64,000 bases of DNA from Candidatus Kaiserbacteria bacterium RIFCSPHIGHO2_01_FULL_58_22. Its GTDB lineage: Bacteria > Patescibacteriota > Minisyncoccia > Phycocordibacterales > UBA2100. Every line of letters begins with the position of its first letter. Position 1 is the first letter of the stretch. The stretch spans positions 17,793-81,792 of the forward strand of contig MFLB01000034.1 of the NCBI GenBank assembly GCA_001781445.1, given 5' to 3'. The notes under the pieces were generated by a model. The model did not search any database, had not been told where the DNA came from, and saw nothing but the letters and a program-made list of their open reading frames with translations. The translations under genes and the position numbers were made by a program. Of the stretch, positions 3,513 to 59,833 are shown one piece after another.

Positions 3513-4402
3513 CCATGGAAACACACATGAATTATTGGAAGCTCTCGACCATCGTGCTCGCGCTCGTCGTACTCGCTGGCGTTGAGAACGCGCTTCCCGG
3601 GCGCGCGGCGCCTCCGGACGCCGCGCGCCGAAGCGTCGACATCGAAAAGCTCGCAGAGAATGTCATTCCCGAAGATGGCGTCGCGCTTCCTATCCGTTGG
3701 GGCAACCTTGGGAAGCGCATGGTGGAGGCGGGCGTGATAGATACAGATGCATTCAACCAGCTCTACGCAGGGCGCGGCGGTTTGAGCGCGCAGGGGAGCG
3801 CGATGCTCGGAGGCGACCATGGGGAACCGGTAGTTATTGGCCGGGAGAACGCGGGAGAACTCCTAAATCTATTTTGGGCATTGGGGCTCGGTAATGCGAA
3901 TCCCATTCTTGCCGACGCCGAAGAAATGATGAACCCGGCGTATGGAGGCGCGGGCGGATTCGCCGCAACCGGCGGCTGGACCCTTGCGAACGGAGATCCC
4001 ATGAACCACTACAACGCTCATGCGCTGGTCTCGATCACGCCGGAGGAGCAATCCCTGGTGGAGCGCGTGAGCGAGAACATCCACCGCCCCTGTTGCGGGA
4101 ATTCTGCGCATTTTCCCGACTGCAATCACGGGATGGCGATGCTCGGTCTCCTCGAACTCCTTGCCGCGAACGGCGCGAGCGAGGAGGAGATGTACGAAAC
4201 AGCGCTCGCCGCGAACTCATACTGGTTTCCCGACACCTACCTCGTCATCGGGCAGTACCTCGCCGAGCAAGGAACCGCATGGGAGGACGCCGACCCGAAA
4301 GAAATCCTCGGCGTTGCCTATTCAAGCGCCGAGGGCTACCAGCGCATCATGAGCATGGTCGAGGGGCCCGTGCAGAACGGGGGAGGGAGCTGTGGTGCGT
4401 AG
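3506..4402 (+). CDS. secreted/membrane-anchored hypothetical protein (HRPCCGNSAHFPDCNHG motif); its 3' end is reconstituted by the left copy of a 37-bp direct repeat
   Basis: 298-aa ORF with an N-terminal TM/signal segment. Its last 11 codons lie inside the repeat 4371-4407. Confidence 0.55.
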   Translation: MVTMETHMNYWKLSTIVLALVVLAGVENALPGRAAPPDAARRSVDIEKLAENVIPEDGVALPIRWGNLGKRMVEAGVIDTDAFNQLYAGRGGLSAQGSAMLGGDHGEPVVIGRENAGELLNLFWALGLGNANPILADAEEMMNPAYGGAGGFAATGGWTLANGDPMNHYNAHALVSITPEEQSLVERVSENIHRPCCGNSAHFPDCNHGMAMLGLLELLAANGASEEEMYETALAANSYWFPDTYLVIGQYLAEQGTAWEDADPKEILGVAYSSAEGYQRIMSMVEGPVQNGGGSCGA

Positions 4403-4407
4403 GTATC
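4371..4407 (+). repeat. 37-bp perfect direct repeat, left copy (tgcagaacgggggagggagctgtggtgcgtaggtatc)
   Basis: Identical 37-mer at 7659-7695. A further shared gtcgag hexamer lies 7 bp upstream in copy 1 and 5 bp upstream in copy 2. Confidence 0.9.
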
Positions 4408-4455
4408 CTTACATGGCAAGTCGCCAGAGATGAACAATAAGTAACGAAAACAGTC

Positions 4456-5031
4456 ATGAGCACTAAACAATTACAGATCAGCGTAATAGCGGCGCTCCTC
4501 CTTATAGGAGGCGCGTACTACTTCAGTGCAACGCCTCGAACTCCGCTCCCGCGTATCACCGACGAAATTCTCGCGGCTAAGTTTGATGTCTTGAGCAAGC
4601 GTGGCAACTCGTCGTGTTCTGCCGCGTTCGCCGACTCGATAGACACGATGGCCGATACAGCGCGGTTTCAGGGCTCGTGTTGCAGTCCGATGGATACGCA
4701 TCGCTATGAAGAACAAATCACGGGACTCACAAAATTCAAAGATATTCCAGACATACCGACAGACCCGTATGACATTGATGCCGGCTTGGCAAAAATGTTT
4801 AAAGACTACTACGATGTAGAACTTACTCCCGAAGAACAGACGGCATATGACTACGCGATACGTAATTCAAACGAGAAGGGGCCGTGCTGTTGTAAGTGCT
4901 GGAGATGGTATGTTTACGGGGGCTTGGGAAAGTTACTCATTCAGAAATACGGGTTTACCGGCGAGCAAGTTACGCAGGTCTGGGACCTTTCAGACGGTTG
5001 TGGCGGCGAGGGTGAACACGTCAATCATTAG
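4456..5031 (+). CDS. Cys-rich secreted/membrane-anchored hypothetical protein (SCCSP, GPCCCKCW, DGCGG)
   Basis: 191-aa ORF with an N-terminal TM helix and 11 Cys. Intermediate GC (~50%) compared with the flanks. Confidence 0.5.
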   Translation: MSTKQLQISVIAALLLIGGAYYFSATPRTPLPRITDEILAAKFDVLSKRGNSSCSAAFADSIDTMADTARFQGSCCSPMDTHRYEEQITGLTKFKDIPDIPTDPYDIDAGLAKMFKDYYDVELTPEEQTAYDYAIRNSNEKGPCCCKCWRWYVYGGLGKLLIQKYGFTGEQVTQVWDLSDGCGGEGEHVNH

Positions 5032-5051
5032 CGGTCATCAATGCAAAATGT

Positions 5052-5528
5052 ATGAAATACTTCTTTATCGGCATCGGGGCGCTCGTCGCTCTCGCGCTCG
5101 GGGCGACGCTCTTCACCTCGCCTTCGGATCAGAGCGGCCCGAGTGATCCGAACATCCTCGCGGTCGGCGGCATGCACTGGCATCCGAGCATTCGCATCTT
5201 CGTCAAAGGTGAGGAGGTGGAAATACCCCAGAATGTCGGCATCGGGGCAGTGCATCAACCGATGCATACGCACGACGACCTTCCCATTATTCACCTTGAA
5301 TTCCCGGCAATCGTTCGCAAGGACGACATCCGGCTTGGCCGCTTCTTCGAAATATGGGGGCGCAATATGCGCTCGTTCGGGGAGGATATGCTCCCGAGCG
5401 ACGAGCGAGGCAGTACTGAAGCCAGTGGGCTGAATGTGCGCATGACGGTGAACGGCAAAGAAAACATCGAGCACGAGAACTACGTCATGCGCGACAAGGA
5501 CGTAATAGAATTACACTACGACTACTAA
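5052..5528 (+). CDS. secreted hypothetical protein, His-rich (GMHWHP, HQPMHTHDD)
   Basis: 158-aa ORF with a signal-peptide-like N-terminus and intermediate GC. Confidence 0.5.
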   Translation: MKYFFIGIGALVALALGATLFTSPSDQSGPSDPNILAVGGMHWHPSIRIFVKGEEVEIPQNVGIGAVHQPMHTHDDLPIIHLEFPAIVRKDDIRLGRFFEIWGRNMRSFGEDMLPSDERGSTEASGLNVRMTVNGKENIEHENYVMRDKDVIELHYDY

Positions 5529-5600: not shown

Positions 5601-5628
5601 TATAGCGCGTTACCTATAGCGCGTTACC
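5601..5628 (+). promoter_or_regulatory. tandem 14-bp direct repeat (TATAGCGCGTTACC x2) abutting the -35 of the AbiEi-like gene; putative autoregulatory operator
   Basis: Two perfect tandem copies read from the sequence immediately upstream of TTGACT at 5629. Confidence 0.4.
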
Positions 5629-5657
5629 TTGACTAGATATTTCAGATATGATACATT
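5629..5657 (+). promoter_or_regulatory. sigma70-like promoter TTGACT-17-TACATT for the AbiEi/AbiEii-like cassette
   Basis: -35 TTGACT (5629-5634), 17-nt spacer, -10 TACATT (5652-5657), 12 nt before the ATG at 5670. Confidence 0.5.
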
Positions 5658-5669
5658 ATTGTCATAGTT

Positions 5670-6287
5670 ATGAAAAGTAAGAAAAACCTGCTGGAACAGC
5701 TGAATAATTTGCCCCATTTCACCAAAAGCACAGTGTATCAGCTCGGTAGTCAGTTAGGGTTAAAAAACAGTACGCTGAATACCTACATCAGCCGCTTTGT
5801 GAAGCGCAAGGATATTTTGCCGCTGAAAAACGGCCTGTATATCTCTGCCAAATTTTTCGCAGACAATAGAAGCGATATCTCGTACTCTTTCTACCTCGCA
5901 AACATACTCCGTACGCCATCGTACGTAAGTTCGTGGACCGCACTCCAGTACTACAATTTCACTACCGAGGCGATACGCTCCATCACGTCAATTACGTCGA
6001 AAGTCACACGGGATTACGAGACGAAGGCCGGCGCTTTTTCATATCAGTCAATCAACAGAAAACTTTTTTCGGACTACTCGCTCGTCAAAGGAAAATTTGA
6101 TTTCTACATCGCCTCGCCGTCTAAGGCGTTGTTTGACTTGCTGTACTTTAGGACGCACCAGTTCCGAGGCGTCCGGTTTGAAGACATTATAAAAATGGTA
6201 GAAGAATTGCGGATAGATATTGACGAAATGGACGAGGCGGAACGAAGCAATTTCTATGAAAAAGTAAAAGCATATCTCCATGAGTGA
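5670..6287 (+). CDS. AbiEi-like protein (type IV TA antitoxin / transcriptional regulator family; N-terminal wHTH)
   Basis: 205-aa ORF in a ~38% GC segment. Size, N-terminal HTH-like region and the 8-bp overlap with a downstream DUF1814 nucleotidyltransferase gene match AbiEi-AbiEii organisation. Confidence 0.6.
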   Translation: MKSKKNLLEQLNNLPHFTKSTVYQLGSQLGLKNSTLNTYISRFVKRKDILPLKNGLYISAKFFADNRSDISYSFYLANILRTPSYVSSWTALQYYNFTTEAIRSITSITSKVTRDYETKAGAFSYQSINRKLFSDYSLVKGKFDFYIASPSKALFDLLYFRTHQFRGVRFEDIIKMVEELRIDIDEMDEAERSNFYEKVKAYLHE

Positions 6288-7593
6288 TCGTATTATTGCC
6301 ATCTTAAAGAAAGAACTCGATGAGCTTGCCGTCCATGGCGAGTTGAGAGCTGATGTCCGTCAGAACAAGCTCAAGGAAGCACTACAGTACCTTGTTCTTG
6401 ACTTTATCTATCACCACCCAGAATACAGCAAGTGGGTAATGTATGGTGGATCAGCGTTACGCATTATTCACGGGCTTGACCGTATGTCAGTAGATTTAGA
6501 TTTTGAAGTCGCACATGATGTAGACAAAACGTTCTTGGAAGAATTGAGGAAGGAGACTGAAACGCACTTCGCAAACACATATGGAACTACCGGCGATTTT
6601 TTTACACTAAAGATAATCTCGACCAGAAGCTTGCTTCTAAAATTCAACGTCGGAAATGTTCTAGACTTTGGACATACATCTAAGCAGGTGCATGTCAAAA
6701 TTGACCTCAATCATTTTGTTGCCCCAAAGACCGTAACGGAACGTAGGCCCATTAATCACGGTCAGACATCCTTCGTGATTTTGACCTACAACAAGGGCGC
6801 ACTTATGGCGAGTAAAATTGCTGCCATACTTCTGCGCGAAGAGCGGGGTGTTGGAAATAATACATACAATTACAAAGGTCGGGATATTTATGACCTGCTC
6901 TGGTACATGAAAGAAAAAACAACACCGGATTTCGACTACCTAAATGCGAAACTTACGGAAAGGAAAAAGGCAATACCGGATATACGGACACTATTCGACA
7001 CGCTTACGGTAGACATTCTAAATTACGAAAAAATGGACGATTGTCTGAAAGACGATCTCTCATATCTCTTTGAGAATCCGCATCAGTTTGATACATGGTC
7101 ACGGACTTGGCGGGACAGTTATCTGCGATATCTTAACGACTATAAAATTCGTATCATCACCAAACTTGATAAAATTCGTGTAAACCATTGGGTTCTAATA
7201 GGGAAAGCAGATGAGCATGATTTTGAATATTGGTATAAAACAACTGAGAATAGTCTTGGGCGGATTGTATATAGATTACACGAGGACTGCATTATCTATG
7301 GGGAACATGACGTATCTGTCGAAATCGACGAAGAACTAGAAGGTCTAATTGAATTCTCGAGCAACATCCTCTATTCCAGAACAGAAGCGGAAGAAAAGAA
7401 ACTCAAACGGTACGCAACACTCTTTCACAAGAAAACAGAGAACTATTTTAAGAAAACGAATCGCGTCATGCTCGGAGATGTCATTGCTACAAAAGTCATC
7501 CGAATGACAGCTGATAATCTCAATCCAAAGGAGCAGATTTTGCTCAATCGGTCGGCGCTGGAATCCCGTGAACTAGATGACTTCTTGAAGTAA
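6280..7593 (+). CDS. AbiEii/AbiGii-family nucleotidyltransferase (DUF1814) with an ~140-aa C-terminal extension
   Basis: MYGGSALRIIHGLDRMSVDLDFEV matches the GS...[DE]xD NTase core of AbiEii toxins. At 437 aa it is longer than typical members. AT-rich codon usage. Confidence 0.7.
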   Translation: MSDRIIAILKKELDELAVHGELRADVRQNKLKEALQYLVLDFIYHHPEYSKWVMYGGSALRIIHGLDRMSVDLDFEVAHDVDKTFLEELRKETETHFANTYGTTGDFFTLKIISTRSLLLKFNVGNVLDFGHTSKQVHVKIDLNHFVAPKTVTERRPINHGQTSFVILTYNKGALMASKIAAILLREERGVGNNTYNYKGRDIYDLLWYMKEKTTPDFDYLNAKLTERKKAIPDIRTLFDTLTVDILNYEKMDDCLKDDLSYLFENPHQFDTWSRTWRDSYLRYLNDYKIRIITKLDKIRVNHWVLIGKADEHDFEYWYKTTENSLGRIVYRLHEDCIIYGEHDVSVEIDEELEGLIEFSSNILYSRTEAEEKKLKRYATLFHKKTENYFKKTNRVMLGDVIATKVIRMTADNLNPKEQILLNRSALESRELDDFLK

Positions 7594-7658
7594 AGTGAAG
7601 CGTAAATCCATGAAAAAATCGCTGATTGAAGAACTACCAAAAATTGTCGTCGAGTTCG

Positions 7659-7695
7659 TGCAGAACGGGGGAGGGAGCTGTGGTGCGTAGGTATC
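7659..7695 (+). repeat. 37-bp perfect direct repeat, right copy
   Basis: Identical to 4371-4407. Preceded by an AT-rich 26-codon ORF remnant (7610-7690, MKKSLIEELPKIVVEFVQNGGGSCGA) that ends with the same 11 residues as gene 3506-4402. Confidence 0.9.
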
Positions 7696-7723
7696 AGAAA
7701 AGTGATACATTGGAAGCAATCAT

Positions 7724-8047
7724 ATGAAACTCGGCATAATCTTACAATCCAACAAGCCGGAACACGCGTGGAATACGTTCCGCCTTGGCATCGCCGCGCT
7801 TAAAGCCGATCATCACGCGGAGATTTTCCTGATGAGCGAGGGGTCGGAGCTGGACGACATCCCGGACAGCGAAGACTTTGACGTTTCCGCGAAAGTCGCG
7901 GAATTCAAGGAACTGAAAGGCGCGATATACGCGTGCGGCTCGTGTCTGAAAGTGCGCGGCAGGGAAAGCGGGACGTGTCCGGTCTCCACGATGTCCGACT
8001 TGCTCGCCATGGTCGAAAGTTCGGACAAAGTGCTGGTTTTCGGATAG
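7724..8047 (+). CDS. DsrE/DsrF-like family protein
   Basis: 107-aa ORF (MKLGIILQSNKPEHAWNTFRLGIAAL...IYACGSCLKVRG) resembling the DsrE/YchN-like fold. Confidence 0.6.
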   Translation: MKLGIILQSNKPEHAWNTFRLGIAALKADHHAEIFLMSEGSELDDIPDSEDFDVSAKVAEFKELKGAIYACGSCLKVRGRESGTCPVSTMSDLLAMVESSDKVLVFG

Positions 8048-8139: not shown

Positions 8140-8167
8140 TTGACAGGATACCCCCTGGGGGTATCAT
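8140..8167 (+). promoter_or_regulatory. promoter TTGACA-16-TATCAT with an embedded perfect 19-bp palindrome GATACCCCC-T-GGGGGTATC (8147-8165; CsoR/RcnR-type operator)
   Basis: Read directly from the sequence. The palindrome fills the spacer. The ATG of the ATPase gene is at 8174, which would give a leaderless or near-leaderless transcript. Confidence 0.6.
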
Positions 8168-8173
8168 GGAAAT

Positions 8174-11517: not shown

Positions 11518-13989
11518 ATGGCTCAAAAAGGCGTCAAAGTCTTGAAATTCGGCGGGACTTCCATGGGAAGCGCCGAGGCGATGAATCAGGTCATCGCCAT
11601 CGTGCGAAAACCCCGGCGCGATGCGCGCATCGCCGCAGTCGTCGTTTCGGCGATGAGCGGCGTTACCGACGAGCTTATCAAGACGGTGCATGCCGCCGCG
11701 CTCGCCGACGGCTCTCACAAGCCGCTCCTGAAACACATCGAGCGGCGCCACCTCGCCGCCGTCGCGCAACTCGTCGGCCGAAAAAACAGGAAGAAGGCGG
11801 TCGCGAGCGTCCGCGCCTTGCTCGAACATCTTAAAGAGGTCGTGACGGGTGTGAGCCTGATACGACAATTCTCTCCCGGCGCTCTCGATTACGTCATGAG
11901 CTACGGCGAGCGCCTCTCGGCGCACGTCCTGTGCGACGCGCTCAATGATCGTGGCGTTTTGTGCGAGTATCTAAACGCGCGGAGCGTGGTCATTACCGAT
12001 GAAAATTTCGGCGAAGCGGCGGTGGATCTCGCGCGCACCAACCGGGCGATACGCGCCCGCTTCAAAGCTCATCCGAAACTGCAGATCGTTACGGGCTTCA
12101 TCGGCGCGTCGGCCGACAAAAAGACGACGACGCTGGGCAGAGGCGGGAGCGACTACACCGCCTCCATTTTCGGCGCGGCGCTCGGCGCGAAGGTGATAGA
12201 AATATGGACGGACGTCTCGGGGGTGATGACCGCCGATCCGCGAAAGGTGGAAGACGCGAAAGCGATTGCGGAAATGACGTACCAGGAAGCCGTCGAAATG
12301 TCCTACTTCGGCGCGAAGGTGATTCATCCGCCGACGATGCGCCCCGCGCAGGAAAAAGGGATTCCCATCGCCATCAAAAACACGTTCGCGCCCGAGGCGC
12401 CGGGCACCATGATCGCGCGCGCGGCGCGCAAGACCGACGACCTCGTGCGGGGCATTTCTTCTTTCGGCGGCATCGCGATGGTCCAAGTGCAGGGCGGCGG
12501 CATGCTCCGCACGCGCGGGGCTTCGGGCCGACTCTTCGGCGCCTTGGCGCGCGCGCGGGTCAACGTGCTCCTAATCACCCAGGCCTCTTCGCAAAACTCG
12601 ATCTCGTTTGCCGTTCGGGAGAAGGACGTGGCGCGCGCGCGCGAGGCGATCGAGGAAGAATTCGCGGCGGAACGCTCGGCCCGCCTCATCGACGATATCG
12701 GCGTTACGCGCGGTCTTTCCATTATCGCGATCGTGGGCGAGGGCATGCGCCACCGCGCCGGCATCTCGGCCCGCCTTTTCGGAACGCTCGGCCGCAACGG
12801 CGTCAACATCGTCGCCATCGCGCAGGGCTCCTCGGAGCTGAACATCTCCGTCGTCGTCGCGGCGAGCGACGAAACGAAAGCCCTGAACGCCGTCCACACC
12901 GGATTTTTCTTCCCGGAAACGAAACCCATCCACCTGTTTTTGCTCGGCACCGGTCTCATCGGCTCGACGCTCCTCTCGCAGGTCTCGCGGCAAAGGGCGG
13001 TCTTGAAGCGCGAGCAGGGCTTCGACATCCGGCTCGCGGGGATCGGCAACAGCGAGCGTATGCTCTTCGATCGCGGCGACATCGCGCCCGAGAAATGGAA
13101 GGAGCGGCTCGAACGCTCGAAGACCCGCATGAACCTCGCCGCGTTCATCGAGACGATGAAGCGCGCGCCGCTTCCCGGCCGCGTCTTCGTCGATTGCACG
13201 GCTTCGGAGGAGGTCGCCCGCGCGTACGCCGAAATACTTGCCGCGCACATTTCCGTCGTCACGCCCAACAAGCGCGCGAACTCGGGCCCGTACTCCTATT
13301 TCAAGAAGCTCGCCGAACTCGCCAAGGAGCCCGGCGTCTCGTTCCTCTACGAAACCAACGCCTGCGCGGCGCTCCCCATCATCAGCATGATCGACGATCT
13401 CATCTTGAGCGGTGATCGCATTACGAAGATCGAAGGTATTCTCTCGGGTACCATGAGCTACATCTTCAATCAGTTCGCGGCCGCGAAAACGTTCAGCGAA
13501 TCCGTCGCGGAGGCCAAGCGCTTGGGATACACCGAACCCGATCCGCGCGACGATCTCGGCGGCATGGACGTGGCGCGCAAGATCCTCATTCTCGCGAGAA
13601 AGGCGGGTTTCCCGCTTGAGTTTTCCGATGTGAAGGTGCAGAGCCTGCTCACGCCGAAGGCCGCGCGCGCCAAAACGGTAGCCGGCTTTTTCCGGGAACT
13701 CGAAATAGAGGACGCCGCGTGGGAGCGCAGGAAGAGGGCGGCGGAGAAGCGGGGGGAGCGCCTGCGCTACATCGCGACCCTGGAGAAGGGGAAGGCGTCC
13801 GTGCGCATCCGCGCCGTGGCGCTCCCGCATCCCTTCTATGAGATGTCGGGGAGCGACAACATCGTGACGATCTCAACCGATCGGTATTCGAAGACCCCGC
13901 TTCTCATACAGGGGCCTGGGGCGGGCGGGGAGGTGACGGCGGCTGGCGTTTTCGCCGACATACTGCGGGCCGCGCGCGACGCCGCCTAA
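11518..13989 (+). CDS. thrA: bifunctional aspartokinase / homoserine dehydrogenase (ThrA-like)
   Basis: N-terminus KVLKFGGTSMGSAEAM (amino-acid kinase), two ACT-like regions, and a C-terminal HSD (LLGTGLIGSTLL Rossmann segment). 823 aa. Confidence 0.9.
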   Translation: MAQKGVKVLKFGGTSMGSAEAMNQVIAIVRKPRRDARIAAVVVSAMSGVTDELIKTVHAAALADGSHKPLLKHIERRHLAAVAQLVGRKNRKKAVASVRALLEHLKEVVTGVSLIRQFSPGALDYVMSYGERLSAHVLCDALNDRGVLCEYLNARSVVITDENFGEAAVDLARTNRAIRARFKAHPKLQIVTGFIGASADKKTTTLGRGGSDYTASIFGAALGAKVIEIWTDVSGVMTADPRKVEDAKAIAEMTYQEAVEMSYFGAKVIHPPTMRPAQEKGIPIAIKNTFAPEAPGTMIARAARKTDDLVRGISSFGGIAMVQVQGGGMLRTRGASGRLFGALARARVNVLLITQASSQNSISFAVREKDVARAREAIEEEFAAERSARLIDDIGVTRGLSIIAIVGEGMRHRAGISARLFGTLGRNGVNIVAIAQGSSELNISVVVAASDETKALNAVHTGFFFPETKPIHLFLLGTGLIGSTLLSQVSRQRAVLKREQGFDIRLAGIGNSERMLFDRGDIAPEKWKERLERSKTRMNLAAFIETMKRAPLPGRVFVDCTASEEVARAYAEILAAHISVVTPNKRANSGPYSYFKKLAELAKEPGVSFLYETNACAALPIISMIDDLILSGDRITKIEGILSGTMSYIFNQFAAAKTFSESVAEAKRLGYTEPDPRDDLGGMDVARKILILARKAGFPLEFSDVKVQSLLTPKAARAKTVAGFFRELEIEDAAWERRKRAAEKRGERLRYIATLEKGKASVRIRAVALPHPFYEMSGSDNIVTISTDRYSKTPLLIQGPGAGGEVTAAGVFADILRAARDAA

Positions 13990-14070
13990 CGAAAAAGCGC
14001 GAAGCACGAAATCCGAAGCACGAAATGAATTCGTTTTCGCGATTTTTGTCCAGAATGATAAGATGATCCC

Positions 14071-19803: not shown

Positions 19804-20427
19804 ATGATGCATCTCATATACAACCAAGAACGACTGCGCATCGCGGTGCAAAAGAAGGGCAGGCTCCACGAAGCGAGCATGAAATACCTCTCTTCGCGCG
19901 GACTCTCGTTCCCACAAAACGGCAAATCGCTCATTCAGTCATCCGAGGATTCCGATGTCGATGTTCTCTACTTGCGGGACGATGACATCCCGGAATATGT
20001 CATGCGAGGTGTTGCAGATCTCGGTATCGTCGGGGAAAATGTACTCGCCGAACGGGATAAGCAACTCTCCATCGTCGCGAAACTGGGCTTCGGAGAATGC
20101 AAACTCATAATCGCGGTGCCGAAGAATTCGAGGATGAAGGTTCCGGCGGACCTGCGGGGCAAACGCATTGCAACGTCATACCCAAACTTGCTCAGCGCTT
20201 TCCTCAAGAAAGAAGGCGTTGAAGCCGAAATCGTGTCTATTTCCGGTTCGGCGGAAATTACGGTCGAACTCGATCTTGCCGACGCGGTCTGCGACATCAC
20301 GCAGACGGGCGCTACGCTCGCGGCGCACGAGCTTGTGCCAATCGTTACCATAATGGAATCTCAAGCGGTACTCATCGAAAGTGCCGGGAAGAGCATGCGG
20401 AAACAGGATTTTTTAAAAGGGTTATGA
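19804..20427 (+). CDS. hisG: ATP phosphoribosyltransferase, short form (HisGs)
   Basis: LRIAVQKKGRLHE...MRGVADLGIVGEN. 208 aa, the short-form length. In-frame ATG at 19804 within ORF 19585-20427. Confidence 0.85.
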   Translation: MMHLIYNQERLRIAVQKKGRLHEASMKYLSSRGLSFPQNGKSLIQSSEDSDVDVLYLRDDDIPEYVMRGVADLGIVGENVLAERDKQLSIVAKLGFGECKLIIAVPKNSRMKVPADLRGKRIATSYPNLLSAFLKKEGVEAEIVSISGSAEITVELDLADAVCDITQTGATLAAHELVPIVTIMESQAVLIESAGKSMRKQDFLKGL

Positions 20428-21707
20428 AAACACTCTCAACCAAAAAAGAATCCATCACTGCGCTCATAAAGCGCCTCCGGCGCGCGCGAAGCAAACGGAG
20501 CGACGTGGAAGATTCGGTACGGCGAATTGTCGATGACGTGCGGCGAAGAGGCGATCGCGCGCTTATCGATCTTACGAAGAAATTCGATGGCGTCGCTCTG
20601 AAGCGCTTGCGGGTGTCTGAAGCGGAAATACGCACGGCGTACCGCATTGAATCGAGAGACGTTGTCCGAGCGCTCAAGAGCGCCCGCGCCGCCATTGCAA
20701 AATTCCACGCGCAAAACGTGAAAAGGGAGAAAGCGGTCGAAACGCAGAAAGGCGTGCGGGTATGGCGCGAATTCCGGCCCATCGAGAACGTCGGCCTCTA
20801 TGTGCCGGGAGGCAAGGCCGCGTATCCGTCTACCGTTTTGATGCTTGGCGTTCCGGCGAAACTGGCTGGATGCAAAGAGGTGGTGCTCTGCGTCCCGCCG
20901 GATAGGAGTGGCAAAGTCCCGAGTGCGGTGCTCGTGGCGGCAGATCTGTGCGGCATCTCGAAGATTTTCAAAGTGGGCGGCGCGCAGGCAATCGCGGCCC
21001 TTGCATACGGCACGAAGACCATCCCGAAAGTTTCAAAGATATTCGGGCCGGGGAACCAGTACGTGACGACTGCCAAGATGCAAGTCTTCGGAGAAGTCGA
21101 CATCGACATGCCCGCCGGGCCCTCGGAGGTACTCGTGCTCGCGGATGCGAGCGCGAATCCCGCATGGGTCGCCGCAGACCTACTCTCCCAGCTCGAACAC
21201 GGGGAAGATTCGCAAGCCATTCTCGTCACCCCTGATGCGAAGTTTGCCGCAGACGTCGTGAAGAACGTCAATGAGCAGGTCAAAACGCTGAGCCGCGGAG
21301 CGATCATCGGGAAATCCCTCAAGCGGAGCTTTGCCGTTGTCGTGAAATCGATTGACGAAGCGTGCCGCTTTATCAATGAGTATGCGCCGGAGCACTTGGA
21401 AATCGTGCTCAAAAAGAATGAAGCAAAGGTTCTGAAGAAAATCGAGAATGCCGGCTCCATCTTCCTTGGCCCGTACGCGTCCGAACCGTTGGGTGATTAC
21501 GCAACAGGCGCGAACCACACGTTGCCGACATCGGGATTCGCGAAGATGTTTTCAGCCCTCTCGGTCGAATCATTTGGCAAGAAGATGCAAATACAGCGCG
21601 TCTCAAAGCGCGGGATCGCGAATCTCCGCAAAACAGTCGAAACGCTGGCAGATCGGGAGGGCCTTGATGCTCACAAGAGGGCTGTCGGTATCCGCTTCAA
21701 AAAATAA
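20424..21707 (+). CDS. hisD: histidinol dehydrogenase
   Basis: 427 aa with typical HisD sequence. Overlaps hisG by 4 bp. Confidence 0.9.
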   Translation: MKTLSTKKESITALIKRLRRARSKRSDVEDSVRRIVDDVRRRGDRALIDLTKKFDGVALKRLRVSEAEIRTAYRIESRDVVRALKSARAAIAKFHAQNVKREKAVETQKGVRVWREFRPIENVGLYVPGGKAAYPSTVLMLGVPAKLAGCKEVVLCVPPDRSGKVPSAVLVAADLCGISKIFKVGGAQAIAALAYGTKTIPKVSKIFGPGNQYVTTAKMQVFGEVDIDMPAGPSEVLVLADASANPAWVAADLLSQLEHGEDSQAILVTPDAKFAADVVKNVNEQVKTLSRGAIIGKSLKRSFAVVVKSIDEACRFINEYAPEHLEIVLKKNEAKVLKKIENAGSIFLGPYASEPLGDYATGANHTLPTSGFAKMFSALSVESFGKKMQIQRVSKRGIANLRKTVETLADREGLDAHKRAVGIRFKK

Positions 21708-24397: not shown

Positions 24398-24536
24398 TGA
24401 AATGTGCCTTAGGCTTACACAAATCTATGGAAACAAATAACGAATGTATCCAAAGTGCAACACGCGAGAGTTCATGGTTCACGCCGCGCCAAGACGGCGT
24501 GCCGCTTGGCGCAAAGGCACATTCTACCAACCGGGT

Positions 24537-26009
24537 ATGCTGATAATTCCGGCAATAGACATCCTCGACGGGAAATGCGTGCGGCTTACGCGCGGCGAAT
24601 ACGTTACGCAAAAGATATACGGCGATCCGCTGAAGTTCGCGAAACAGCTCGAAAGCGACGGCGCGCGCATGCTCCACGTCGTTGATCTCAACGGCGCGCG
24701 CGACGGCGCGCCCGCGAACCGCGAGCTCATCATGCGGATATGCTCGGCGGTTTCCATTCCCGTCGAGGTCGGGGGAGGCATACGAAAAGCGGAGACGGCG
24801 CGGGCGTATCTCGCCGCGGAAGCGGCGCGCGTCGTAACAGGCACGAGGGCCATGGACGACATGGACTTCGTCGGTGAGCTCATACGCGAGTTCGGCGCTT
24901 CACGCATCGTCGTCGCGCTGGAAATAAAGGGCGGGAAGGTCGCCGTCAAGGGATGGCAGTCCACGGTGCACAAGGACTATCGCGAGCTCGCGCGCGAGCT
25001 CAAGGCCCGCGGCGTTACCGAGCTCCTCTTTACCGACGTCGAGCGGGACGGCACGCTGACGGAGCCCAACTTCGAAGTGGTGCGGGAACTCGCCGCTCTC
25101 GGGTTCAACGTCATCGCCTCGGGGGGCGTTTCGGACGTGCAAGCGATACGAAAACTTCGGGAGCTCGGCGCCGCAAGCGCGATAATCGGCAAAGCGCTCT
25201 ACGAGGAGAAGATGACGCTCGGAGAGGCCGAGGAAGCCGCGCGGCCGCTTTCCGGATTGGCGAAGCGCATCGTTCCGTGTCTCGACGTCAAGGACGGGAA
25301 GGTGGTGAAGGGAATTTCGTTCGAGAATCTTCAAATCGTTGGCGATCCGGCGGCGCTCGGCAAGAAATATTCCGCGGAAGGAGCCGATGAACTCGTTTTT
25401 CTCGATATCTCCGCATCGAAGGAAGGAAGGGAAACGATGTTCAGCGTTGTCGAGCAGGTTGCGAAGGAAGTCTTCATTCCTTTCACCGTCGGCGGCGGCA
25501 TCTCGAGCGTGGAGCAGATGCGGCGGCTTCTCCACCTCGGAGCCGAAAAGGTTTCAATCAATACAGCGGCCGTCAAAGACCCTTCTCTCATCACGGCAGG
25601 TTCGAAGGCTTTCGGCTCACAAGCTATCGTCGTTGCAATAGACGCGAAGCGCGTAGGAACAGGATGGAAAGTGTTTTTGAGAGGCGGCTCTGAAGAAACA
25701 CAGCTCGACGCGATAGCGTGGGCGAAAGAAGCAGAAACACGAGGCGCAGGAGAAATACTGCTTACTTCGATGGACAAAGATGGGCAGAAATCCGGATACG
25801 ATATCGAGCTTTTGCGACGAGTCTCGGAGGCAGTGCGCATTCCCGTCGTCGCTTCCGGCGGGGCCGGTTCGCTCGAAGACCTGAAACGCGCGCTTACCGA
25901 CGGCTCGGCCGATGCGGCGCTCGTCGCGAGCCTTTTCCACTACGGGGAGTATAGTATTACAGACGCCAAGGAATACCTCGCGAAAGAGGGTATTTCGATG
26001 CGCACATAA
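24537..26009 (+). CDS. hisAF: fused HisA (ProFAR isomerase) - HisF (IGP synthase cyclase subunit) in one ORF
   Basis: The N-terminal ~240 aa read [17 protein letters not shown]...[13 protein letters not shown] (HisA). After a short linker, [16 protein letters not shown]...GGGISSV...[12 protein letters not shown] (HisF). No stop codon between them in the six-frame track. A start at 24474 is an alternative. Confidence 0.8.
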
Positions 26010-55992: not shown

Positions 55993-56070
55993 GCTGACAG
56001 TTTACAGATTACAGTTTACGGCAAAATACGGCGATATTGACTGTTCACTGTTAACTGTTCACTGTTAACT
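55993..56070 (+). repeat. two heptamer tandem-repeat runs (AGCTGAC AGTTTAC AGATTAC AGTTTAC ...; TGACTGT TCACTGT TAACTGT TCACTGT TAACT)
   Basis: 7-bp periodicity in the dnaJ-cvpA spacer, immediately upstream of the CvpA-like start codon (minus strand). Confidence 0.6.
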
Positions 56071-57267: not shown

Positions 57268-57294
57268 AGGCAAAATGCCTGCCTTATATGGCAG
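57268..57294 (-). terminator. overlapping alternative hairpins CAGGCAaaaTGCCTG / CCTGCCttatatGGCAGG plus direct repeat AGGTTAAACCTACT x2 (57293-57325) in the dnaK-dnaJ spacer
   Basis: Read from the sequence. The function (attenuator, processing site or partial terminator) is not determinable here. Confidence 0.35.
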
Positions 57295-57320
57295 GTTAAA
57301 CCTACTAGGAGAGGTTAAAC

Positions 57321-59198
57321 CTACTGGGATTTAGGCGGTTCCTCGGGAGGTGTTTGCTTGTTTCCCGGTTGGTCGCTGGGAGGCGGAGTCTGTTGCTGGT
57401 TTTGTGACATCGCCTGCCCTATCGCGCTCATCGCGGTTGAAAGCGCTTCGGAAGCGGATTTAATCGCGGCGGCGTCCGTGCCGTTTCTTGAAGATTTGAG
57501 AGCGTCTATTTTTTCCTGCACGTTCTTCTTTATGTCCTCGCTCACTTTGTCGCCATGTTCTTTGAGCGCCTTTTCTGCGGCATAGGCAAGCTGGTCGGCG
57601 GCGTTCTGCGCTTCCACGAGCTCTTTCTTCCGCTTGTCGGATTCCGCGTTCGCCTCCGCGTCCTTTTTCATCTTCTCCACTTCCGCCTCCGAAAGGCCGG
57701 AGCGCGCCTCGATGCGGATGGATTGCTCCTTGCCGCTCGTTTTGTCTTTGGCTTTCACGCTCAAAATGCCGTTGGCATCGATGTCGAAGGAGACCTCGAC
57801 TTGCGGCACGCCGCGCGGCGCGGGCGGGATGCCGTCGAGGTTGAAGCGGCCGAGCGATTTGTTGTCGGATGCCATGGGCCGCTCGCCCTGCACGACGTGT
57901 ATCTCGACGGACGGCTGGTTGTCGGAGGCTGTCGAGAAGAGCTGGGAGCGGGAGGTCGGTATCGTCGTGTTGCGCTCGATGAGATGCGTCGCGACGCCGC
58001 CGAGGGTCTCGATGCCCAAGCTCAACGGGATGACATCGAGAAGAAGTACGTCCTTCACGTCGCCACGCAGGATGCCGCCCTGTATCGCCGCGCCGATCGC
58101 TACGACCTCGTCGGGGTTCACGCCCATGTGCGGCTTCTTGCCGAAGAGTTTTTCGACCGCCTGCTGGATGGCTGGCATGCGGGTCTGGCCGCCGACGAGC
58201 ACGACCTCGTTGATGTCGCCCGTCTTGAAGGGAGAGGCTTCCATCGCGCGCTTCGCGATCGCCATCGCGCGCTCGATGAACTCGGAAGAGAGCTCCTCGA
58301 GCTTCGCGCGGCTCATCTTGAGGAGCAGGTGGCGCGGGCCAGAAGAGTCGGAAGTGATGAACGGGACGTTTATCTCGGTGTCGACGGCCGTCGAGAGCTC
58401 TATCTTCGCTTTTTCGGCCGCTTCGTCGAGGCGCTGGCGCGCGAGAGGGTCGTTGAGGACGTCGATGCCGGATTCTTTTTTGAACTCTCCGGCTATCCAC
58501 GCCATGATCTTCTGATCGAGATCCTTGCCGCCGAGGTGCGCGTCGCCGTCGGTCGAGCGGACCTCAATGACGTCGTCGCCGACCTCCAATACCGATATGT
58601 CGAACGTGCCGCCGCCGAAGTCGAAAACGGCTATCTTTTCGTTCTTCTTTTTGTTGAACCCGTACGCGAGCGCCGCCGCCGTCGGCTCGTTGATGATGCG
58701 CTTCACGTCGAGGCCCGCGATCTTTCCCGCGTCTTTCGTTGCCTGCCGCTGGGAGTCGTTGAAGTAGGCCGGGACGGTGATGACCGCCTCCGTGATAGTC
58801 TCGCCGAGGCGCGCTTCCGCGTCGGCTTTTAATTTCTGCAGTATCATCGCGGAGATCTCCTCCGGGCGGTGCCATGTTTCGCCCATCTTCACCTCGATGC
58901 CGCCGTTCGCGCTTTTTTGCGTTTCGAAAGGCACCGCCGCGCGGTCTTTCGCGACGGCGGGTTCGTCGAAGGTATGGCCGATGAACCGCTTTATCTGGTA
59001 GACCGTGTTCTTCGGGTTCGTGACGGCCTGCCGCTTCGCGAGGAGTCCCACAAGGCGCTCCCCCGTTTTCGAGACGGCGACGACGGAAGGCGTCGTACGC
59101 GCGCCTTCGGCGTTCTCTATGATCTCCGGCTCTCCGGCCATAACGGCCGCCATCGCGGAGTTGGTCGTTCCGAGGTCTATTCCGAGGATTTTTGACAT
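57321..59198 (-). CDS. dnaK: molecular chaperone DnaK (Hsp70)
   Basis: [25 protein letters not shown] and other Hsp70 signatures. 625 aa. Confidence 0.95.
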
Positions 59199-59769: not shown

Positions 59770-59833
59770 GACGAGAGCGAGTGTATCACACTCGCGACAT
59801 CAAAAAAAGAATCGGAAATCAGAATCGGAAATC

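Follow-up and report, generated by a model that had tools for sequence, protein, structure and literature searches.

AbiE has been ranked fourth in abundance among defence systems and counts as a 'first-line' family, found in more than 10% of groundwater bacterial metagenome-assembled genomes (MAGs; PMC12259885). In the systems of Streptococcus agalactiae and Lactococcus lactis (COG5340-COG2253, DUF1814/PF08843), a helix-turn-helix (HTH) antitoxin of ~200 aa, AbiEi, and a pol-beta-type nucleotidyltransferase (NTase) toxin, AbiEii, are encoded in this order by overlapping genes of a bicistronic operon. Canonical AbiE carries an inverted-repeat operator in its promoter, as described for IR1/IR2 of S. 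agalactiae abiE, and the motifs of the DUF1814 toxins were defined as hG[G/S] (I), R..DhD (II), K..A...R (III) and +DxxD (IV) (Dy et al. 2014, PMC3985639). The mechanism, a nucleotidylation of tRNA under antitoxin-induced autophosphorylation, is just beginning to be understood. Upon AbiEi binding, S. agalactiae AbiEii is auto-phosphorylated at T65, and the class is being revised from type IV to type VII toxin-antitoxin (TA) systems (bioRxiv 10.64898/2026.01.19.700257). The type VII system MenAT of Mycobacterium tuberculosis (MenT1/MenT3) shares the DUF1814 NTase superfamily. Here we describe a related locus in a stretch of 64,000 nucleotides from Candidatus Kaiserbacteria bacterium RIFCSPHIGHO2_01_FULL_58_22 (contig MFLB01000034.1, positions 17,793 to 81,792), which is referred to as the window. 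We consider it highly probable that positions 5629-7593 of the window comprise a self-contained, horizontally transferred AbiE-type toxin-antitoxin or abortive-infection cassette, which belongs to a conserved 'long AbiEii' subfamily (Table 1). An earlier note on this DNA had labelled the locus as an abortive-infection and type IV TA system; the kinship to AbiE was retained, while the type IV label is affected by the ongoing revision to type VII.

The family assignment is most clearly seen for the toxin. Its N-terminal part matched Pfam PF08843 with 78.9 bits (cut-off 22.5; E 7.4e-22; aa 45-236) and the PADLOC AbiEii model with 1.8e-30 (aa 24-277), which agrees with the AbiEii/DUF1814 core that had been recognised before from GGSAL...R.SVDLDF, present here as GGSAL...RMSVDLDF. 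The same PADLOC scan returned AbiEii families only and thus did not support an identity as AbiG (AbiGii). All four DUF1814 motifs are intact, and in an alignment of 53 sequences down to 29% identity K32, R68, S70, D72, D74, K179, D202 and D205 were invariant. As in the AbiE systems of S. agalactiae and L. lactis, a Ser/Thr precedes the first catalytic Asp by two residues, and the spacing equals that of R63/T65/D67/D69 in S. agalactiae. Based on the alignment with T65, S70 is the candidate phosphoacceptor, a position which is conserved in MenAT as well. A further likeness to MenAT is predicted at the level of function, namely the nucleotidylation of tRNA 3' ends and its neutralisation by antitoxin-induced autophosphorylation. 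In contrast, no profile match from the toxin to the MenT structures in the PDB was detectable, and the cassette differs from MenAT in its extra C-terminal domain and its AbiEi-type antitoxin. The only solved structure that was reached by the 53-sequence profile was the DUF1814 NTase JHP933 of Helicobacter pylori (4O8S/4OK0, E 3e-5). Here, the match covers catalytic motifs I-II, so that of this protein of 232-260 aa a catalytic motif of ~40 residues alone aligns, and it possesses no counterpart of residues 288-437.

Antitoxin and toxin genes show the bicistronic order and the overlap known from AbiE. Both open reading frames (ORFs) are intact and share 8 bp, as had been noted before, and an AbiEi homologue was found directly upstream of the toxin gene in every related locus with enough upstream DNA. 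The 8-bp overlap of the type ATGAnTRA, which joins the stop of abiEi with the start of abiEii in a translational coupling, was present in 59 of 79 related loci, and 11 further loci showed an overlap of 4 bp. Protein 1 matched the PADLOC AbiEi models nearly end to end (up to 3.2e-36, aa 7-189), in line with the AbiEi-type partner that had been proposed from its size and HTH character. Compared to this, the NCBIfam model TAA_AbiEi gave a weak match of 20 bits (cut-off 150), and no Pfam AbiEi family was matched by the protein of the window, which is too divergent for these families; weak matches to AbiEi_4/wHTH were restricted to a few of its homologues. The solved AbiEi structures in the PDB were not matched by sequence searches either. 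Altogether, the predicted AbiEi identity of protein 1 is the weakest link of the family assignment.

Table 1. Coordinates of the cassette, its upstream region and the parts of its proteins (positions refer to the window)
Feature	Position	Strand	Description
Tandem direct repeat, 14 bp	5601..5628	.	perfect, TATAGCGCGTTACC x2; abuts left cassette edge, outside cassette
Sigma-70-type promoter	5629..5657	+	-35 TTGACT 5629-5634; 17-nt spacer; TG-extended -10 TGATACATT 5649-5657
Candidate AbiEi operator	5639..5676	.	imperfect palindrome of ~38 bp; dyad axis 5657/5658, end of -10 hexamer
Palindrome outer arms	5640-5644; 5671-5675		TTTCA; TGAAA (overlaps start codon)
Palindrome inner arms	5653-5655; 5660-5662		ACA; TGT
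abiEi	5670..6287	+	205 aa, intact ORF; antitoxin/autorepressor candidate; predicted N-terminal winged HTH (wHTH) and C-terminal antitoxicity domain
abiEi/abiEii overlap	6280..6287	+	8 bp, ATGAGTGA; joins abiEi stop with abiEii start
abiEii	6280..7593	+	437 aa, intact ORF
abiEii residues 1-287	6280..7140	+	DUF1814 pol-beta-type NTase core and helical C-terminal subdomain
Motif I			G56-G57-S58 of AbiEii
Motif II	6481-6501	+	R68-x-S70-x-D72-x-D74 of AbiEii; window reads R68-M-S70-V-D72-L-D74
Motif III			K179...R186 of AbiEii
Motif IV			R201-D202-I-Y-D205 of AbiEii
abiEii residues 288-437 and stop	7141..7593	+	clade-specific C-terminal extension, ~150 residues
Parts of the extension			acidic beta-sheet ~290-361; basic long helix 369-392; beta-hairpin/helical tail 396-437, highly conserved

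The main difference to the described systems lies in the C-terminal part of the toxin. Since the protein comprises 437 aa and residues ~288-437 extend beyond every AbiEii model, it is considered a member of a variant AbiE subfamily and not a canonical AbiEii. The ~140 additional residues mentioned in the earlier note thus amount to ~150, and for this part of the window protein no match was found in Pfam, NCBIfam, PADLOC or PHROGs. In 39 C-terminal segments that were compared with Pfam, as a known domain might have become visible in a divergent member, nothing but single-member noise was obtained. Accordingly, the extension is not a common, already annotated domain of AbiEii proteins. When its profile was searched against 1.84 billion representative proteins, 76 matches were obtained. 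All full-length ones had a size of 418-437 aa and carried the domain C-terminally, as did one further protein of 487 aa, and the remaining matches were fragments, so that the extension is confined to the long-AbiEii architecture. Two apparent stand-alone copies were discarded: one (P0192) was cut by a contig end, while the other, an extension-only ORF of 149 aa (P0191; L104, 195-644), is preceded by stop codons and unrelated sequence. The latter, as the only candidate for a stand-alone domain copy, is probably a deletion remnant. Judged by these sequence comparisons, the C-terminal ~150 residues mark a distinct AbiEii subfamily, as had been suspected, and no published description of long AbiEii or its C-terminal domain was found.

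Structure prediction with AlphaFold2 (AF2) of the full-length AbiEii from a shallow alignment gave a predicted local distance difference test score (pLDDT) of 74, with ~30 for the tail. With a deeper alignment, residues 229-437 were modelled with a pLDDT of 93.4 and a predicted template modelling score (pTM) of 0.85. In this model, three helices, which correspond to the standard helical subdomain, are followed by three long antiparallel strands, a fourth strand, a long helix, a beta-hairpin and two short helices. Among solved folds no match to the model of the extension was found, and an NTF2-like fold was rejected as neither structural nor profile comparison gave a significant match; based on this model, the extension may represent a new fold. 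A derivation from AbiEi can be dismissed as well (hhalign probability 0.6%). With regard to conservation, the tail (396-437) showed 2.89 bits of information per column compared to 2.85 bits for the NTase core. In the alignment of 53 sequences, Y378, L381, F382, K385, T404, K405, I407, R408 and T410 were conserved to at least 90%. A basic helix and a T-K-x-I-R-x-T strand are thus conserved features of the extension. The charge of the helix (366-395) is +3.7 on average and +6 in the window protein, while the sheet is acidic.

Among annotated replicons, the closest relatives were the short AbiEii proteins of Campylobacterota plasmids. The protein of Sulfurospirillum diekertiae pSDCE1 (WP_191342132.1, 298 aa) shows 30% identity over residues 29-230, has the motif YGG[ST]ALRI..GL.R.S.DLDF in common with the toxin described here, and is preceded by a partner of ~212 aa with an overlapping gene. 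In contrast to the 437 aa of the window protein, these plasmid proteins comprise 295-298 aa and end near the equivalent of residue 298, without the extension. The assumption that the extension originated by fusion with a downstream gene of such a short-form locus was not confirmed, since the downstream 199-aa gene of pSDCE1 is not homologous to it. A tblastn search against plasmids recovered short forms only, matching residues ~20-275 with 22-31% identity, and gave no lactococcal plasmid match to the toxin.

The long form itself is widespread. The 120 best database relatives of the toxin were all 384-439 aa in length, covered the query almost completely in nearly all cases with 59-84% identity, and their named sources were almost all Patescibacteria. 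Exact matches to the window proteins were found in the Candidatus Kaiserbacteria MAGs GW2011_GWA2_58_9 and RIFCSPHIGHO2_02_FULL_59_21, in which the genes are annotated as 'Protein containing DUF1814' and 'Transcriptional regulator'. At least 77 related loci were revealed by a scan in which each GTDB species was covered by one genome. Essentially the whole protein was matched in all of them except for one cut at a contig end (L053) and one matched over residues 1-278 only (L084). Most belong to Patescibacteria, others to Omnitrophota, Gammaproteobacteria, Spirochaetales, Planctomycetales and further groups, including a complete 3.2-Mb Aminicenantes chromosome. No match was found in 50,697 phage records, and no relatives in IMG/VR with the patterns used. 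The family is already present in public databases as 'AbiEii/AbiGii toxin family protein', and surveys count such loci as AbiE. In the earlier note, the locus had been rated as a top candidate for an undescribed variant system. This rating is justified for the C-terminal domain but wrong with regard to the operator, and it overstated the uniqueness of the locus. In addition to single cassettes, contig JBAXTU010000009.1 carries two long-form cassettes (L027 and L032) only a few kb apart, and in two loci (L073, 6639-8010; L082, 5521-6881) a second, short AbiE-like pair adjoins the long one.

As judged from its homology edges and composition, the cassette is horizontally acquired. The DNA homology of the window to related loci starts sharply at 5626-5629 and ends at 7592-7594, and for a Lloydbacteria cassette with 82% nucleotide identity it is limited to 5626-7594. 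Across its hosts, the cassette shows an average GC content of 38% (standard deviation 4%), while the flanks vary from 29% to 60%. Sharp edges and uniform GC content together imply that the mobile unit is exactly the promoter plus the two genes and that it has repeatedly entered high-GC hosts. Within the window, GC contents of 44.0% and 41.5% were determined for gene 1 and gene 2 (42% for the pair), compared to 58.0% in the window overall and 56-61% in the flanking DNA. The contrast is therefore real but smaller than the ~38% versus ~65% originally stated. No empty insertion site was found, as all contigs with the exact flanking proteins also carry the cassette, which appears fixed in this Kaiserbacteria population.

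The promoter TTGACT-17-TACATT, already recognised in the earlier note, shows nine of twelve consensus matches and a TG extension. By consensus alone, such sites are not above chance (5 found vs 4.7 expected), and the promoter is instead supported by its conservation in register in about 70 related loci. The upstream consensus reads TTGACA-N5-TTTCAC-ATATGATACACT-ATTGTCATA-NTT-ATGAAA. Since the ATG of abiEi lies only 12 nt downstream of the -10 element without a Shine-Dalgarno sequence and several operon-first genes of the host are arranged alike, a leaderless mRNA, or one with a very short leader, is predicted for abiEi, in contrast to the described AbiE operons.

Embedded in this region is a palindrome, conserved in the whole family, that covers the -10 element and the start codon of abiEi, with the predicted transcription start in between. 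In 69 loci, 69.3% of its cells were complementary compared to 33-57% when the partner was slid by 1-3 columns, and the covariation score amounted to 0.124 compared to at most 0.066 for the slid versions; none of 500 shuffles attained the observed percentage or score. Compensated palindromes occur in L072, L067 and L078, and in distant loci they are perfect, for example in L072 (GCATTTCGGAATT...AATTCCGAAATGC). The invariant TTTCA arm is located in the spacer of the promoter. Because this region has no promoter function and precedes the predicted transcription start, the palindrome is interpreted as a DNA site and not as an RNA hairpin. The half-sites, ~31 bp apart, bracket the -10 element in a geometry that resembles IR1/IR2 of S. 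agalactiae abiE, while here the right arm takes in the start codon. At the level of sequence, the inverted repeat in the promoter known from canonical AbiE is thus found, and the palindrome is a candidate AbiEi operator.

The earlier note had instead considered the tandem 14-bp repeat a possible autoregulatory operator and a possible mark of a distinct subfamily. The repeat is indeed real and perfect and lies immediately upstream of the -35 element. However, it is located outside the homologous DNA of the cassette and is absent from 73 of 73 other related upstream regions, and a sister Kaiserbacteria strain (L100) possesses a single copy with one mismatch (TATAGCGCGCTACC), which points to a recent local duplication. 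Moreover, similar two-copy tandem repeats of 13-19 bp with 94-100% matches occur in other intergenic regions of the window (14000-14026, 56040-56070, 57293-57329, 59808-59833). A function as operator or subfamily mark is therefore very improbable. The repeat is best explained as a lineage-specific duplication in host DNA at the left junction, while the element conserved in the family is the inverted repeat with the -10 element at its centre. As a target-site duplication, the 14-mer would be expected to recur at the right junction, but no copy was found there within 3 mismatches.

By homology to AbiE of S. agalactiae and MenAT of M. tuberculosis, the following mechanism can be proposed. AbiEi would bind to the palindrome with its wHTH domain and thereby repress the promoter, while free AbiEii would add nucleotides to tRNA 3' ends and halt translation. 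Binding of AbiEi would induce self-phosphorylation of AbiEii on S70 and thus inactivate the toxin, and a disturbance of the balance between both proteins, for example by phage infection, would release it. For the extension, a role as an added module for substrate (tRNA/RNA) binding or specificity is the most likely one of those considered, albeit with low confidence. Whether the long-AbiEii clade represents a mechanistically distinct AbiE subtype, in which a domain of new fold provides a substrate-recognition or infection-sensing function and which spread as a minimal cassette mainly among ultra-small Patescibacteria and occasionally to other phyla, is regarded as possible, though somewhat short of probable.

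Accessory C-terminal domains often act as sensors in defence proteins. The extension could accordingly bind a phage protein or nucleic acid and release or activate the NTase, so that infection would be sensed directly and not by way of antitoxin decay. Its restriction to one clade and its lack of a match to known folds would fit such a sensor, and lactococcal AbiG is reportedly activated by a phage tail protein (PMC13064643). Sensors, however, usually evolve fast, whereas the conservation of the tail roughly equals that of the catalytic core in homologues down to 29% identity, and neither similarity to viral proteins nor, with the patterns used, relatives in viral contigs were found; we consider this explanation unlikely. 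To a similar degree doubtful is a role as protein-protein interface, that is, a docking surface for AbiEi or a contact for oligomerisation which alters the stoichiometry or stability of the complex. The observation that AbiEi of S. agalactiae contacts both the N- and the C-terminal domain of AbiEii speaks for it, as does the tail being disordered in the full-length shallow-alignment model (pLDDT ~30) and ordered in the domain-only model from the deeper alignment. On the other hand, AbiEi is of ordinary length and matches ordinary AbiEi hidden Markov models (HMMs) almost end to end, which indicates that it has no extra domain as a partner for the extension.

The cassette as a whole could also be mainly a selfish addiction module that spreads and is maintained by post-segregational killing, without contributing to phage defence in the Patescibacteria that carry it. 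The minimal mobile unit of promoter and two genes with sharp homology edges, the GC content of ~38% in hosts with flanks of 29-60% GC, the occurrence of two copies on one contig, and the location in a copper-homeostasis cluster instead of a defence island are all in agreement with this assumption, and AbiE is known to stabilise plasmids as well (PMC3985639). Yet AbiE homologues confer phage resistance (PMC3985639), some related loci are situated among other TA and restriction-type genes, and addiction and defence are not mutually exclusive. A mainly selfish function is rather unlikely, though less so than the two alternatives for the extension. Several points also weigh against the interpretation as an AbiE cassette with an RNA-binding extension. 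The AbiEi assignment rests on the PADLOC HMMs, with Pfam AbiEi families and solved structures unmatched at sequence level, and the -10 hexamer together with the ATG-AAA start accounts for part of the conservation of the palindrome. The fold of the extension was compared with solved structures, and a related predicted fold may exist; the proposed role of the extension in RNA binding is based on charge and conservation. Finally, for every member of the subfamily, toxicity and its neutralisation, the binding of DNA and a function in defence are predictions.

The long-AbiEii cassette is a variant of a well-known system and not a new kind of system, its uncharacterised part being the C-terminal domain. 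The presence, in a conserved subfamily, of an unclassifiable domain under as much constraint as the active site points to a further level of control or of substrate choice, which was not examined in the work on short forms. Furthermore, the subfamily is concentrated in Patescibacteria, whose defence biology is largely unexplored. Since the cassette is small, self-contained and easily synthesised, the hypotheses are directly testable in Escherichia coli.

Downstream of abiEii, no intrinsic terminator was detected. The spacer at 7594-7723 comprises 130 bp, is AT-rich (44% GC) and is essentially unshared with other cassettes; in L020 alone the alignment continues, up to 7617. The spacer harbours an ORF of 26 aa (7611-7691) and the promoter-like element of a DsrE-like gene. 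The two genes that precede the cassette (4456-5031 and 5052-5528) showed no Pfam matches, and the GC content is already lowered to 50-57% across 4250-5528. The cassette may lie at the border of a more extended region with an atypical composition.

The surrounding copper-homeostasis cluster encodes CsoR-like, DUF411, DsrE-like and CopA-like proteins. Two near-identical palindromes, gATACCCCCTAGGGGTAT and gATACCCCCTGGGGGTAT, are located at ~945-968 and ~8146-8168, just upstream of the genes for the CsoR-like repressor (ATG 976) and an HMBD P-type ATPase (ATG 8174), respectively, and look like CsoR operators in sequence. Many operon-first host genes (starts at 976, 7724, 8174, 10459, 11518, 15224 and 30500) show a -10-like hexamer 6-12 nt upstream and no Shine-Dalgarno sequence. 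For the DsrE-like gene at 7724, the arrangement TGATACATT-12 nt-ATG is identical in geometry to that of the cassette promoter. This pattern suggests that mRNAs which lack a leader or have a short one are common in this Kaiserbacteria genome. Further products of the window are a bifunctional aspartokinase/homoserine dehydrogenase, a histidinol dehydrogenase and a multifunctional fusion protein of histidine biosynthesis (11518-13989, 20424-21707, 24444-26009), and so much amino acid biosynthesis is unusual for a Patescibacteria genome.

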